The position numbers and the translations under genes were made by a program. A model generated the notes under the pieces. The model was not told the origin of the DNA and made no database searches. It worked only from the letters and a program-made list of their open reading frames with translations. Below are positions 1,102 through 8,980 of a stretch of 38,978 bases of DNA, one piece after another. Source of the stretch: a virus (taxonomy: Duplodnaviria; Heunggongvirae; Uroviricota; Caudoviricetes); the IMG/VR virus record IMGVR_UViG_2645728091_000012. One strand, given 5' to 3'. Positions within the stretch are counted from its first letter, which is position 1. Each line of letters starts with the position of its first letter.

Positions 1102-1422
1102 TCAGCGGGATAATTTTTGGATTGTTTCGGTTGAAACGCGATCTCCCTCCGAATTGCAGGAACCATCAAGAGAGAGAGCCGGAGAAATTTGCCCGACCTC
1201 CGGCATCGTTTCATCTGTTGATAACCAATAAGCATACTTCTTAAATTTAGGGTGTTTCGTAACCTTAAGTAAGGCACCCTCTGTTACTTGCTTCCCCCTC
1301 ACCTCATAGTTAGTTACCGTCCCATAAGGCAGCCCAACACAATCCGCAAACTCCTGGCGGGTCATACCTTCTGCTTCACGAATCAGGCGAAATTTTTCAC
1401 CCATGCTTGACAAAGATGCCAT
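1102..1422 (-). CDS. C: Immunity repressor, P2 C-type
   Basis: Resembles P2 C (GLPYGT..YE..G, KYAYWL, GQISPAL). Start chosen at MASLSSM (rc of 1420-1422) because GGAGGA lies ~10 nt upstream; the ORF track start at 1476 is probably too long. Confidence 0.75.
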   Translation of the reverse strand: MASLSSMGEKFRLIREAEGMTRQEFADCVGLPYGTVTNYEVRGKQVTEGALLKVTKHPKFKKYAYWLSTDETMPEVGQISPALSLDGSCNSEGDRVSTETIQKLSR

Positions 1423-1480
1423 ATCGGGCATATCCTCCATCGCAACATGCCACATCGGGCACAAACATAAAAACACTCAA

Positions 1481-3845: not shown

Positions 3846-4141
3846 GCACCATCAATCACCAGAAGCTACGCGAACTGGCATTTGCCCTGCAACGAATGGC
3901 AACGCCTCAAAAATTACTGGTATTTCGCGCAATGCTCTCGCCGTCTGCTGTGCTGGCACTGCTGGATGAGCTGGAGCACGCCAGAACCACGGCTCCTGCC
4001 ATTCGCCTGACGCTCCATCATGAAATCGCTGATTTCTGCGCGACGTTGAAGGCGCCAGGCGAACCGGAAACACCGGAAGCAATACAGCAAGAGCTGCTGC
4101 AACGCATTGACAAGGTTTTTGATTTTTTTCTGAACCAGTAA
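3842..4141 (+). CDS. Hypothetical early protein
   Basis: 99-aa ORF, ATGA overlap with upstream gene. Confidence 0.5.
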   Translation: MSTINHQKLRELAFALQRMATPQKLLVFRAMLSPSAVLALLDELEHARTTAPAIRLTLHHEIADFCATLKAPGEPETPEAIQQELLQRIDKVFDFFLNQ

Positions 4142-4264
4142 GAAACCAGAACATGCACACACAAAAAAACCGCTTGCCATGCCGCAATCAGTCAGGTTAC
4201 ATTTCCGCTGCACCTCACAAAACGGGTGTCGGGTTTCGCAGCCTGCTGACTACACAAGCGCACA

Positions 4265-4284
4265 ACCGCGCCAGCGGTTTTTTT
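4265..4284 (+). terminator. Candidate intrinsic terminator (ACCGC-GCCA-GCGGT followed by T7)
   Basis: 5-bp GC stem, 4-nt loop, 7-T run downstream of the 3379-4141 gene cluster. Confidence 0.4.
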
Positions 4285-4463
4285 GTGCGTACTGTATTGC
4301 CACGTTTTTTTCGCGTCAGAATTATGGCGGGGCGTACGGGGCCGACTTCGGTCGGGCCGGGTTCTTGTGTAGCCGGTACTGCGAACCTCGTACGTCTCGC
4401 CACCCACAGTTTCGCAGCTCTGGATGGTGAGTTTTCACAACTTACTACACAAGGGGCCACACC

Positions 4464-4694
4464 ATGGCAAACCGCAAACCACACCGCGCTATCGCGGAGC
4501 GTCGTCACATCCAGACTGAAATCAACCGCAGACTTTCCCGCGCATCACGCGTCGCGCAAATCATGCACATCAATATGCTGCATGAGCGCAGCCACGCACT
4601 ATCAAACATTTATTCCGCCTCTGTTTTCAGCTATCTGGCGGATGATCTGCACGAGCTTCAACAGCTCATCCAGCAGCAAAACAAACTCCATTAA
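4464..4694 (+). CDS. Hypothetical early protein
   Basis: 76-aa ORF with AAGGGG RBS 8 nt upstream. Confidence 0.5.
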   Translation: MANRKPHRAIAERRHIQTEINRRLSRASRVAQIMHINMLHERSHALSNIYSASVFSYLADDLHELQQLIQQQNKLH

Positions 4695-4766
4695 TTCCTG
4701 TTCCGGGCCTTTCCTGCACCTTGCGGCGGGAGGCCTTCGCACATCTGTAACAAGAGGATTGCCGCA

Positions 4767-5132
4767 ATGATTCTCGCCAACGACTTTCTTGAATACCTGC
4801 TCAACACAGAACGTGATCTTGCCGCTCGCGTGCGTGATCGTTATGACATGTACCAGAAATCCCTGCCTGTACCGCAGCTCGCTGACGGAAAGATTGTTAT
4901 TGATGGTCGCTACATGATTGACAGCCACGAGGGAAATTACAGGCTTTACCGCATTGAAGATGGCACCCCGTCCGTTATTGGCATTTACCAGCGCCCATCC
5001 TCTGCAATCGTCGATGTGATTGCCGACAGCATCCGCATCACACATCGCCATGCCGACACAGAAGACACCGTGCTGGAAATTCAGCGGCTGGCTGCCGTCT
5101 GCCGCGACACCCTGAATGGCATGACGAAGTAA
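4767..5132 (+). CDS. Hypothetical early protein
   Basis: 121-aa ORF with AAGAGG RBS, directly upstream of replication gene. Confidence 0.55.
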   Translation: MILANDFLEYLLNTERDLAARVRDRYDMYQKSLPVPQLADGKIVIDGRYMIDSHEGNYRLYRIEDGTPSVIGIYQRPSSAIVDVIADSIRITHRHADTEDTVLEIQRLAAVCRDTLNGMTK

Positions 5133-5138
5133 ATCACT

Positions 5139-7949
5139 ATGACGGCAGAGTACATCAGGGACTGGCAACAACCGCGCCACGCAGTGGGGCGTGAAGGAAC
5201 GGGGATCCCCGTTCCTGAATCCGCGCTTTCCTCCTGGCTGGATGCCTACCGGGCAGAGAACGAGCGCCGCCAGGAAATGGCTGATGCGGCGTTCTCCGCC
5301 ACGCCGCTGGGCAACCTGATTAATAAAAGCCTGGACGCACAGGAAAAACAGGACAAAACCATCACACTGGCAGGAGACGCCAGAAAACAGGCACGCGGCG
5401 CGGTGGATGAAGCCATGGCCTCGCTGCGCCTGCTGCCGTCCTATCTGCGCGATCCGCTTATTCGCCACCTCTCCTTCCTGCGCAAAAAACAGGAAGCCGA
5501 TCGCCGGAAAGGCAAAAAGAGCTGGCAGGCTGAACGCTACGCGCGCGGAACACTGCGCAAAATATTCGAACGTCTGGACCGCACCGACCACCGCTGGCTG
5601 ACACCGGGTTATCGCTCCCTTGCCGGACGCGAACGCCTGGATGATTTGCTTTACCTGCCGCAGCTCAACCAGTACCAGATACAGACGCTGGCCACCATGA
5701 CGGCGGCGATGTTCAGCAGCACCTTCGAAAAACTCTGCGATGGCTTTGGCGCGACCGATGGCGAACTGACCATGGATGTAACGCTGAAGGCGTATCAGAT
5801 GCTGGCCCGCATGGCGTTACACCTGCACGCCATGCCGCCACATTACGAAGCTCTGAACAAGAGCGATCCGGATACGGAACTGTTACCGGGCGCAATCCTT
5901 CGCCTGACCTGTGCGGAATGGTGGAAACGCAAACTGTGGCTGTTACGTTGCGAGTGGCGGGAAGAACAACTCCGCGCCGCCTGTCTGGTTTCCAGAAAAA
6001 CATCGCCCTATCTGAGCCAGGACGCGTTAAGCGAGTTTCGCGCACAGCGCGAGAAAACACGCGATTTCCTGAAAAGTTTCATTCTGGAAAACGAAGACGG
6101 GTTCACGATTGATCTCGAGACAGTGTATTACGCGGGAGTAAGTAACCCGGTTCACCGTAAGGCAGAAATGATGGCCACCATGAAGGGGCTGGAACTTCTG
6201 GCCGAAGCCCGTGGCGACAAAGCGGTGTTTCTGACCATCACCTGCCCGTCAAAATACCACGCCACAACAGAGAACGGTCATCCGAATCCCAAATGGAACG
6301 GGGCCACCATGCGCGACTCCAGCGATTACCTGGTTAACACGTTTTTTGCGGCGGTCCGCAAGAAACTGAACCGCGACGGCCTGCGCTGGTATGGCATCCG
6401 CACGGTGGAGCCTCACCATGACGGCACCGTGCACTGGCATATGATGGTCTTTGCTCATCCGGAAGAAATCGACACCATTGTGTCCCACACCCGCGATATT
6501 GCCATTCAGGAAGATCGTCACGAGCTGGGTGATGATATTACCCCACGCTTTAAGGCGGAGTACGTCGACGGCTCAAAAGGCACGCCAACCAGCTACATCG
6601 CCACCTACATCGGAAAGAACCTGGACAGCCGCGCCGTAGATGGCATCGACCCGAAAACGGGCAAGCCACGCGTTGACCACGAAACCGGAAAATCAATGGC
6701 CGAGAGCGTGGAACGCGCCATCGGCTGGGCGCGCCTTCACCGTGTCCGCCAGTTCCAGTTCTTTGGTATCCCCTCCCGTCAGGTGTGGCGTGAACTCCGC
6801 CGCCTTGCCAGCCAGATGGCACGCAACCCGGAAGGCCCGCAACGGCTGAAGGATGACGCAATGGATGCGGTACTCGCTGCCGCTGATGCCGGATGTTTTG
6901 CCACCTACATAGAGAAACAGGGCGGCGTACTTGTTCCACGCAAAGACTACCTGATTCGCACCGCCTACGACCTCGCAGATGAGCTGAACGATTACGGCGA
7001 ACAGAGCGTACAGATTTACGGGATCTGGTCGCCGCTCATCGGGGAGTCTTCCCGCGTATGCACGCATCCGGATAACTGGAAGCTGGTAAGACGCAAACCG
7101 GAAGCGGAAGACAGCTCCCACGAAAATGGTTTTGACCTTCAGGGCGGCCCTGCCGCCCCTTGGACTCGTGGCAATAACTGTCCCCGTGTACAGGAAACGA
7201 ACAACAACGGGACAGAACAGCCGGAAGAACGGCCAGCACCGTGGCCGCAGCTCCCTGATGGCGTTGAAGTGAACGAATGGATGCGCTCACTGAAACGGCA
7301 CGAACGCCGGGCGCTGATGCGTTCGCTTCGTGACAAACAGGCAAAAAACAGCAGTGATGAAATGCAGAGCTGGACACAGAGCCGCAAACAGCAGCGGCCT
7401 TTGCCTGATAACCACGAATTACTCGCTAAAGAATGGCGGGAATCTGCCGAATCTCTCGGCCTGCATATCGGTGAACAGCAGATGCAGCACCTGTTACGGG
7501 GCGGCAGCCTGTACGTTGACGGCAGCATCATTGCACCGCAGGGATTTGAAATTGTACGCAAACCGGATACCAGCCCGGACAGCCGAATCACGCAGCTCTG
7601 GCAGCGCCTGAGCCGTAATCACGGCGTAAGCAGCACAGAGATCCGCCATAACCCGGTCGCCAGCTATCTGGAACAACTGGGGGCATCAGACCCCGAAGCC
7701 GCCGCACGTCTGGCATCCACACTTCAGCAGGACCAGAACACCATGAAACCCCCCGTTACCGTGCTTTCTGACATGCTGCGCGCCATCCGTGACACAGAGC
7801 ACGCACAAAGAATCAATGAAACCACTGAACGCGCACGCCGCAAGGCTACTTTGCTCCAAAAGAGAGGCAAACAGCACTTTAGTAATCAAAATGATGATGA
7901 GAAAAAACAATTACAAAGTTGGATATGCCTTTTCCATCATGAGGGATGA
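5139..7949 (+). CDS. A: Rolling-circle replication initiation endonuclease (P2 gpA-like)
   Basis: 936-aa ORF; HUH-type motif (TVHWHMMVF) and gpA-like organisation; position after early operon. Confidence 0.85.
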   Translation: MTAEYIRDWQQPRHAVGREGTGIPVPESALSSWLDAYRAENERRQEMADAAFSATPLGNLINKSLDAQEKQDKTITLAGDARKQARGAVDEAMASLRLLPSYLRDPLIRHLSFLRKKQEADRRKGKKSWQAERYARGTLRKIFERLDRTDHRWLTPGYRSLAGRERLDDLLYLPQLNQYQIQTLATMTAAMFSSTFEKLCDGFGATDGELTMDVTLKAYQMLARMALHLHAMPPHYEALNKSDPDTELLPGAILRLTCAEWWKRKLWLLRCEWREEQLRAACLVSRKTSPYLSQDALSEFRAQREKTRDFLKSFILENEDGFTIDLETVYYAGVSNPVHRKAEMMATMKGLELLAEARGDKAVFLTITCPSKYHATTENGHPNPKWNGATMRDSSDYLVNTFFAAVRKKLNRDGLRWYGIRTVEPHHDGTVHWHMMVFAHPEEIDTIVSHTRDIAIQEDRHELGDDITPRFKAEYVDGSKGTPTSYIATYIGKNLDSRAVDGIDPKTGKPRVDHETGKSMAESVERAIGWARLHRVRQFQFFGIPSRQVWRELRRLASQMARNPEGPQRLKDDAMDAVLAAADAGCFATYIEKQGGVLVPRKDYLIRTAYDLADELNDYGEQSVQIYGIWSPLIGESSRVCTHPDNWKLVRRKPEAEDSSHENGFDLQGGPAAPWTRGNNCPRVQETNNNGTEQPEERPAPWPQLPDGVEVNEWMRSLKRHERRALMRSLRDKQAKNSSDEMQSWTQSRKQQRPLPDNHELLAKEWRESAESLGLHIGEQQMQHLLRGGSLYVDGSIIAPQGFEIVRKPDTSPDSRITQLWQRLSRNHGVSSTEIRHNPVASYLEQLGASDPEAAARLASTLQQDQNTMKPPVTVLSDMLRAIRDTEHAQRINETTERARRKATLLQKRGKQHFSNQNDDEKKQLQSWICLFHHEG

Positions 7950-8134: not shown

Positions 8135-8980
8135 ATGACAAAGCCTTCTCATTTTAGAACCCCTCTTCGTTATCCGGGAGGTAAGGCAAAATTCTTGCCA
8201 CATATTGAACAAATACTCCGCAACAATGATCTCATTGGTGGATGTTATGCTGAACCTTATGCAGGTGGAGCCGGTGTAGCATTAGGTTTGCTCCTTAACG
8301 GTCTTGTTGAAAATATCTTCATAAATGATATTGATCCTGCCCTTTATTCTTTTTGGTTTGCAGTGGTTAATCATAACGATCTGTTATGTGAAATGATTGA
8401 TGAAGTTCCTGTGACTATTGAAAATTGGCATACTCAAAAGGAGATACTCCTAAACAATGATAAATATAGTATGCTTGAAGTCGCATTATCAACTTTCTTT
8501 TTAAATAGAACAAACCGTTCAGGAATACTTAAGGCTGGCGTTATTGGAGGGAAAGAACAAAAAGGACCATGGAAGTTAGATGCAAGATTCAACAAAAAAG
8601 AGTTAATTAAAAGGATTGAACTAATTGGTGCATATAAGGAGAAAATTTACGTATCGAATTTTGATGCTGTAGATTTTCTGCTACACCAAAAAGCATTGCT
8701 ACCCCAAAATAGTCTAATATATCTTGATCCACCTTATTATGTTAAAGGAGCAGAGTTATATAGAAATTTTTATAAACATGATGATCATGTAAAAATCGCT
8801 AATACACTACGGGAAATTCAACTACCTTGGGTTGTGTCTTATGACAATGTGCCTGAAATAAAAAGCATATATCATGAATTCAACATGACTGATTATACGC
8901 TTAATTATACTGCACAAGATAAGAAAAAAGGTCTAGAAATTATCATTTATAATCATGGTATAAAAATCCCTGACATTTAA
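8135..8980 (+). CDS. N6-adenine DNA methyltransferase, Dam/D12 class
   Basis: Motifs seen directly: PGGK near N-terminus, EPYAGGAGV (AdoMet-binding FxGxG-like), FLNRTNRSG, catalytic DPPY; strongly AT-rich compared with flanking phage genes. Confidence 0.8.
   Translation: MTKPSHFRTPLRYPGGKAKFLPHIEQILRNNDLIGGCYAEPYAGGAGVALGLLLNGLVENIFINDIDPALYSFWFAVVNHNDLLCEMIDEVPVTIENWHTQKEILLNNDKYSMLEVALSTFFLNRTNRSGILKAGVIGGKEQKGPWKLDARFNKKELIKRIELIGAYKEKIYVSNFDAVDFLLHQKALLPQNSLIYLDPPYYVKGAELYRNFYKHDDHVKIANTLREIQLPWVVSYDNVPEIKSIYHEFNMTDYTLNYTAQDKKKGLEIIIYNHGIKIPDI

Follow-up and report, generated by a model that had tools for sequence, protein, structure and literature searches.

What occupies positions 4142 to 4463 in the early operon of a P88-like prophage, and how would it act? 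The window, by which we mean the whole 38,978-nt stretch of DNA analysed here (IMG/VR record IMGVR_UViG_2645728091_000012), belongs to a P88-like Xuanwuvirus, a P2-family phage. The initial annotation described these positions as an island that is GC-rich, has no credible open reading frame (ORF), and looks like either a structured RNA or a clustered protein-binding array. We conclude that the island is very probably an antisense-RNA immunity cassette of the IsrK/C4 type, with the layout known as seqA-CI-seqC in P4 and a1b1-c4-a2b2 in P1, here placed in the early operon of a P2-family prophage. Cassettes of this type are already known from P4, P1/P7, N15, Gifsy-1, and other lambdoid prophages; our literature searches, which included one paper on the diversity of P2-like phages, returned no description of the cassette in P2-family phages. 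Among 5426 complete E. coli genomes, 1153 contain the cassette, which most often carries either no annotation there or the wrong label of an 'ash family protein' gene or pseudogene.

Two RNA genes and their pairing elements

Scanning the whole 39-kb window with Rfam models at gathering threshold returned only two matches, to C4 and IsrK, both within the island and, like all features of the cassette given below, on the plus strand. The C4 / P4 CI-type antisense RNA (RF01695; 4320-4407) scores 83.2 bits against a gathering score of 45 and covers model positions 1-87 of 87. It has the long closing stem around two hairpins that typifies the class, with the closing stem at approximately 4325-4402. 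The hairpin with a UUCG loop that the initial annotation had picked out (CCGAC-TTCG-GTCGG, 4342-4355) is indeed there and forms the first internal hairpin of C4. Across 15 diverse sequences, including P4 and lambdoid phages, the C4 consensus fold comprises 27 pairs, 11 of them with compensatory double changes and none broken. A tRNA-like stem followed by GCCACCC is the sole feature favouring maturation by RNase P.

Upstream of C4, the IsrK / P4 seqA-type RNA (RF01394; 4210-4284) scores 61.9 bits against a gathering score of 50 over model positions 1-77 of 77, and shows the two 5' hairpins and the intrinsic terminator expected of this class. The terminator, AACCGC-GCCA-GCGGTT followed by a T-run (4264-4284), was also found independently of the Rfam model. 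A consensus-level sigma-70-like internal promoter, TTGCCA-18-TACATT, is predicted at 4174-4203. It ends 6 nt before the start of the IsrK model, the same position relative to the IsrK start as the P4 PLE promoter and the Gifsy-1 isrK promoter (PMC4825925). We rejected a second promoter-like site at 4297-4325 (TTGCCA-17-AATTAT) as a chance match, given that its -35 element reads TCGCCA in many relatives and that its start would fall within the C4 stem. A weak match to STnc410 (4106-4154; 17.5 bits, E = 0.35) is noise, and a scan for tRNA and tmRNA gave no match. Overall, the suspicion of a structured RNA was well founded: the covariance-model scan and the folding with covariation from homologous prophages that the initial annotation had proposed yield two curated models matched over their full length above the gathering score, and a C4 fold supported by covariation. 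The antisense/target logic, the internal promoter, and the terminator had no part in that earlier description.

Repeat scanning, alignment, and folding place two antisense elements in C4. Element b', CTTGTGTAG (4364-4372), occupies the loop of hairpin 2, and a' (4379-4388, core CTGCGAA at 4379-4385) lies in a single-stranded joiner. Both have targets in the IsrK-type RNA, namely a1 (4233-4242, core TTCGCAG at 4235-4241; predicted duplex with a' of -15.2 kcal/mol) and b1 (CTACACAAG, 4250-4258; -12.5 kcal/mol with b'). Downstream of C4 are a2 (4409-4418, core TTCGCAG at 4411-4417; -11.3 kcal/mol) and b2 (4445-4456; -16.2 kcal/mol), in which CTACACAAG at 4445-4453 runs into the Shine-Dalgarno sequence AAGGGG (4451-4456) of an epsilon-like gene whose ATG is at 4464. 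The downstream target thus overlaps a ribosome-binding site, as is characteristic of C4 RNAs, and in several b-types the pairing is 10-11 nt long and reaches into the Shine-Dalgarno sequence. Cognate duplexes amount to -11 to -16 kcal/mol, compared with -5 and -9 kcal/mol for a heterologous type.

These elements account for the repeats in the island. Three copies of CTACACAAG had been noted and three exist, two direct and one inverted (CTTGTGTAG), although the first direct copy had been placed at 4249-4257, one base off. A second triple, GTTTCGCAGC in a1 and a2 with its complement CTGCGAA in a', had been missed. Among 1000 dinucleotide shuffles of 4142-4463, a 9-mer occurring three times on either strand arose in two and a perfect inverted repeat of at least 14 nt in one, so both the 9-mer triple and the 14-nt inverted repeat considered in the next section exceed chance. 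The island is only mildly GC-rich, at 0.58 compared with 0.48-0.57 in its flanks.

Natural variation follows the same pairing scheme. Aligned with P88 and Citrobacter phage Shae_phiSM, the island shows 91% column identity, and the differences lie almost entirely in the six antisense and target elements. Variability is concentrated in the same six elements in a comparative set of 43 unique islands, derived from 80 IMG/VR loci that were retrieved via the downstream gene. At least five a-types and at least ten b-types occur in this set in re-assorted combinations, and in all types but one the C4 element is complementary to both of its targets, over 7-8 nt in the a-types and 9-11 nt in the b-types. 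In the exceptional type, b' pairs with b1 by G-U wobble and with b2 with one mismatch; this type therefore favours RNA-RNA pairing over identity of DNA sites. As in other C4 RNAs, a' and b' thus co-vary with one upstream and one downstream pair of targets, and the identities of the two RNAs, the pairing scheme, and its covariation can be read directly from these data. An exact-pattern scan of IMG/VR for the C4 specificity of the window found 39 matches, all 39 in the same phage type and none in lambdoid or P4-like elements. Five or more a-types and ten or more b-types supply a ready collection of orthogonal antisense/target pairs, and constitute a record of diversifying selection on RNA-based immunity. 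In one locus (L079, IMGVR_UViG_2582580934_000004), a 17-nt insertion at the equivalent of window positions 4360-4374 duplicates the b' hairpin, giving a C4 with two different b' loops, CTTTGCTCT and CTTGTGTAG, and targets of the CTACACAAG type. It is possible that this is a dual-specificity immunity RNA.

IsrK has been equated with P4 seqA and C4 with the CI RNA, under the name 'IsrK-C4 immunity system' (PMC3632133, PMC4825925), and P4 is one of the closest points of comparison. Its immunity region runs PLE - seqA - CI RNA - seqC - kil/eta - epsilon - orf151 - orf106 - alpha. The window shares with P4 the same two Rfam families in the same order (seqA, then CI RNA), an antisense element that on reading the sequence complements one upstream and one downstream target, and, as predicted here, an internal promoter at the same position. 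Both also have a long ORF (eta in P4, 214 aa, with a Phage_ASH match) that begins ahead of the promoter and reads through the RNAs in a frame that bears the same relation to C4, and an operon that leads from the RNA cassette through epsilon and small ORF(s) to a replication gene, as does the left operon of P4. Unlike the P4 satellite, the host of the cassette is here a complete P2-type (helper-class) phage. There is no kil; the gene regulated first is the epsilon-like one, whose frame differs from that of the long ORF. For replication the phage has a gene of the gpA type, whereas P4 has the alpha primase; an upstream arm complementary to the terminator is present that is not seen in P4; and sequence identity is low.

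In P1/P7, the immI region is arranged as P51 promoters - a1 b1 - c4 - a2 b2 - icd - ant. Common to P1 and the window are a C4 with both a' and b', an a1-to-b1 offset of 14-15 nt, and a b2 that ends 10-11 nt before a start codon, directly in front of a small first gene with an anti-repressor function behind it (the P1 record is experimentally annotated in this respect). Heteroimmunity of P1 and P7 is known, and here too the specificity types differ between relatives. Unlike in P1, the upstream target segment is IsrK-type, has its own terminator, and does not reach the threshold of the P1-type c4-a1b1 model; an epsilon-like gene lies downstream in place of icd/ant; and the cassette lies within a long early operon, whereas that of P1 is a separate C1-controlled operon.

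The Gifsy-1 locus of Salmonella (isrK - orf45(STnc1160) - anrP) and the homologous cassettes in Stx and lambdoid phages likewise have IsrK followed by C4, a ribosome site overlapped by b2, and an anti-repressor, with approximately 70% DNA identity over the RNA part. STnc1160 is a processed C4-like RNA, and IsrK activates downstream translation in trans (PMC4825925); both RNAs reach high levels in Gifsy-1 lysogens in every condition tested (bioRxiv 10.1101/787010). In the lambdoid cassettes the long ORF runs in frame into a Rha-type anti-repressor domain, whereas the anti-repressor candidate here is the 76-aa epsilon-like protein, in another frame. Such long ORFs across IsrK-C4 that continue into the Rha domain were found in two lambdoid records (L006, 1646-2797; L007, 1641-2792), and two nested products would be expected from each, the longer translated from upstream transcripts and the shorter from the start under C4 control, as for P4 eta/kil. 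In an Stx2a phage (L005), an ALIL pseudoknot, a frameshift element of the IS3 family, scores 120.9 bits at 4066-4182 on the minus strand, approximately 2 kb from IsrK-C4 and unrelated to it.

The long inverted repeat

The initial annotation also reported a perfect 14-nt inverted repeat, CACAAAAAAACCGC at 4160-4173 against GCGGTTTTTTTGTG at 4274-4287, which sequence reading and a repeat scan both recovered and which grows to 21 nt with 90% complementarity (4157-4177 and 4270-4290). The right arm overlaps the loop, the 3' stem, and the T-run of the IsrK terminator. The left arm is upstream of the internal promoter and would therefore be present only in transcripts from the early promoter. Partition-function folding gives the terminator stem a probability of 0.85-1.0 in RNAs that start at 4210 and of approximately 0.03 in RNAs that start at or before 4142, even if these end at 4279, before the U-run. 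Going by this modelling, the left arm is a plausible but unproven promoter-selective antiterminator. Its A-run may in addition function as an UP-element-like tract for the internal promoter. Lambdoid phages cross the terminator by N/Q antitermination. No N-like antiterminator is known in P2-type phages, which may be why the extra upstream arm exists here.

The main alternative, with chances about even, is that the repeat has no RNA function, and that the left arm combines an A-tract UP element with recombination-junction sequence and matches the terminator incidentally. The A-run lies at -46 to -40 from the predicted start, and it is around these positions that the proximal subsites of UP elements sit. 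We saw no counterpart of the left arm on reading the P4 sequence and that of one lambdoid homologue (L006), and the lengths of the A and T runs vary independently in some contigs. Both arms are invariant in the 43 unique islands except for run lengths in the A-tract, so covariation is uninformative and speaks neither for nor against this view. On the other side, a perfect 14-mer is rare by chance, the full arm is kept exactly in two different upstream junction families, and the arm lowers predicted terminator occupancy from 0.85 to 0.03. A natural loop variant, GCAA, moreover lengthens the perfect pairing to 18 nt. A retron msr/msd reading of the repeat was discarded: there is no reverse transcriptase nearby, and the repeat is accounted for by the terminator.

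Proposed regulation in the lysogen and during lytic growth

The first gene behind the C4-controlled ribosome site, ORF76 (4464-4694, plus strand, 76 aa), encodes an epsilon-like 'derepression protein'. It scores 32.5 bits on PF25738, above the cutoff of 27, and BLASTP aligns it with P4 epsilon at 29% identity over 66 aa (E = 4e-9). The gene is the most C-rich and G-poor stretch of the early operon, with C/G up to 2.15 compared with a 95th percentile of 1.71, and the peak looks like a Rho entry (rut-like) site. The epsilon-like gene was also sought beyond the clade: in the phage collection it turned up only in Xuanwuvirus records, and among species representatives only in one E. albertii genome. 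Three loci (L091, L098, and L108) have an in-frame 54-nt deletion in this gene, which joins MANR to RLSRAS and leaves both overlapping frames open; two imperfect 20-nt direct repeats, at window positions 4470-4489 and 4524-4543, lie the same distance apart.

By homology with P4, P1, and Gifsy-1, a constitutive internal promoter at 4174-4203 would fire in the lysogen, and most transcripts would stop at the IsrK terminator. Read-through RNA would be processed into stable C4, with RNase P possibly forming its 5' end, and C4 would pair with a2 and b2 on read-through transcripts and block translation of the epsilon-like gene. Rho might then end the untranslated, C-rich RNA ahead of ORF121 and the replication gene A. 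Such termination by Rho follows C4/CI pairing in P4 and P1. The short IsrK-type RNA, carrying a1 and b1, may compete for C4 or for the C4 segment in a long transcript, and the build-up of this RNA, or an excess of target transcripts, could titrate C4 and switch epsilon on, in agreement with the action in trans demonstrated for IsrK of Gifsy-1 (PMC4825925).

In the lytic cycle, transcripts that begin at the early promoter (Pe) would have to cross the cassette. They would do so along a frame that contradicts the earlier view of an island with no credible ORF: ORF205, an eta-like read-through ORF of 205 codons (4153-4770, plus strand) that runs through the promoter, IsrK, the terminator, C4, and a2/b2 and that relatives also keep open. 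Its ATG at 4153 lies 21 nt before the -35 element and 11 nt after the upstream stop. The ORF runs over the epsilon-like gene in a different frame, and its TGA stop (4768-4770) overlaps the start codon of ORF121, an ATG at 4767. Only Pe transcripts are expected to contain ATG 4153, and their translation along ORF205 may prevent termination at both steps and be coupled to that of ORF121; bypass may be assisted by the arm at 4157-4177 if it pairs with the 3' half of the terminator. For P4, Forti et al. 1999, as summarised in PMC10111431, found that eta begins upstream of the internal promoter, that it is translated only from upstream-promoter transcripts, and that its translation prevents immunity-dependent termination.

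Several points weigh against this account. Firing of the internal promoter, processing of the RNA, the part played by Rho, and the translation of ORF205 are steps that we infer from the better known systems. ORF205 is without a clear Shine-Dalgarno sequence, and the Pfam family Phage_ASH (PF10554) matches it at aa 16-109 with 25.0 bits, narrowly below the cutoff of 26. An open frame over the island alone arose in 290 of 1000 shuffles and is not significant (the whole of ORF205 stayed open in 21 of 1000), and, with the controlled gene (4464-4694) in a frame other than that of ORF205, the nested in-frame kil of an eta-type ORF is missing. The c4-a1b1 motif (RF03163) scores 19.9 bits (E = 0.021), well short of its gathering score of 46.7; the a1/b1 function is present, but within an IsrK-type scaffold. 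Finally, opposite outputs have been stressed for the known systems, repression by C4 in P4 and P1 and activation by IsrK in Gifsy-1.

The last point leads to a different account of what the cassette mainly does, which we regard as possible but doubtful. As in Gifsy-1, where IsrK raises orf45-anrP translation 140-fold in trans (PMC4825925), the IsrK-type RNA would open the epsilon-like ribosome site in trans, resulting in putative anti-repression of the phage's own C repressor and in induction, with C4 mainly a by-product or buffer. For a transcript beginning at 4210, folding at minimum energy has a1/b1 paired in cis with a'/b', an arrangement that resembles the inactive 'structure A' of Gifsy-1 (PMC4825925). 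Induction with mitomycin C allowed phage P88 to be recovered (PMC5285337). In the window, the C repressor region (C at 1102-1476, minus strand) codes for a short helix-turn-helix (HTH) protein with no obvious cleavage domain, and a scan of the whole window found no LexA box near promoters, which makes induction through an anti-repressor plausible; the single CTGT-N8-ACAG match (7178-7193), inside gene A, is a chance match. Against activation as the main job, the many re-assorted types suggest selection on a discriminating trans-acting repressor, as in P1/P7 and P4 immunity, and the C4/CI RNA is the genetically defined immunity factor in P4 and P1.

The window may hold a helper-class P2-type phage that carries a P4-type immunity and epsilon cassette together with a cis-encoded, promoter-selective RNA antiterminator (4157-4177) and an out-of-frame read-through ORF that couples into the replication genes. 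We advance this full combination tentatively and consider it rather unlikely; the antiterminator arm and the out-of-frame read-through ORF are not described for P4, P1, or Gifsy-1. Were it true, the arm would sequester the 3' half of the IsrK terminator, so that lytic transcripts pass and those from the internal promoter stop, and the re-assorted types would reflect RNA-level warfare over anti-repressor expression among co-resident P2-like prophages, possibly including satellites. Independently of this combination, recognition of the cassette as an IsrK/C4 riboregulator offers a testable candidate for the means by which P88-like P2-family prophages, with a C repressor that lacks an obvious cleavage domain, regulate their epsilon-type anti-repressor and the replication gene A.

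The ash label and the surrounding operon

In E. coli genomes, PGAP/RefSeq labels the region 'ash family protein', 'similar to ash family protein', or pseudogene. On these labels, the 25-bit Phage_ASH match on ORF205, and a frame that is open in nearly all relatives, one could take the island for a protein-coding Ash-family gene or pseudogene whose product, and not the RNA, is functional. We consider this very improbable. Phage_ASH scores 82 bits on P4 eta and 43-57 bits on lambdoid Rha ORFs, and its coverage in these coincides exactly with the RNA region: seqA and CI in P4 eta, and the IsrK-C4 part of the lambdoid Rha anti-repressor ORFs. This correspondence indicates that the Ash domain is itself a translation of the IsrK and C4 RNA genes. 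The regions concerned are 4198-4479 in the window and 8168-8812 on the minus strand in P4 (L008). Recognition of IsrK and C4 would thus correct the annotation of these genomes and explain Phage_ASH as the translation of two RNA genes.

What is conserved in ORF205 is its openness. Counterparts of 205-206 aa with the same start and the same ATGA end occur in the window, P88, Shae_phiSM, and E. albertii, and an in-frame ATG is retained 1-16 nt past the stop codon, whichever of six different genes lies upstream. With respect to C4, the frame is that of P4 eta, and it is open in four species-level relatives. ORF205 is thus eta-type in position and frame: it begins shortly after the preceding gene and ahead of the internal promoter, and its frame through the two RNA genes is fixed. 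Polymorphisms in ORF205 are spread over the three codon positions as 17/18/19, with no bias and no third-position excess, compared with 20/12/31 in ORF121. In E. albertii, two compensating 1-nt indels, one in a1 and one in a2, shift the middle of the ORF into another frame without closing it. Because of this shift and the absence of codon-position bias, the sequences point to selection on openness, not on the protein, and existing variation preserves RNA pairing. BLASTP of ORF205 against P4 eta was not significant, so the relationship between the two rests on the Pfam profile, frame, and position. In the P88 record (L002), a hypothetical protein is annotated antisense across the C4 RNA (4556-4744, minus strand) and is probably a spurious call.

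The protein-binding array envisaged by the initial annotation, with the CTACACAAG / CTTGTGTAG repeats and the a-set as DNA operators for an early phage protein, would draw on a 9-mer that recurs over 200 bp in two direct copies and one inverted copy and on DNA-binding proteins of the MarR-type winged-HTH class encoded just upstream, and is almost certainly wrong: complementarity and not identity is kept across types, as expected of an antisense loop and its RNA targets; the middle copies always lie in an unpaired loop or joiner of a covariance-supported RNA; layout and spacing equal those of the annotated P1 c4 RNA target sites; one natural type pairs only via a G-U wobble, a mismatch at the DNA level; and the unrelated a and b motifs share the same direct-inverted-direct layout and re-assort independently, which would need two co-evolving proteins.

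The early region as a whole has the gene order int, C, cox, small early ORFs, a MarR-type winged-HTH gene, an Ead/Ea22-like ORF, the island, ORF76, ORF121, a gpA-type replication endonuclease, and ParM. ORF121 (4767-5132, plus strand), identified from the ORF list and from relatives, is a conserved hypothetical gene whose start is coupled to the stop of ORF205 through the ATGA overlap. The P2 gpA-type replication endonuclease gene (5139-7949, plus strand), which has the same annotation in a 98%-identical phage record, is distal in the same operon. Directly after it, past window position 7949, come ParM-type plasmid segregation and partition/stability genes (8739-10001 in L001); the presence of partition genes in an integrase-bearing P2-like phage hints at an option of plasmid-like maintenance.

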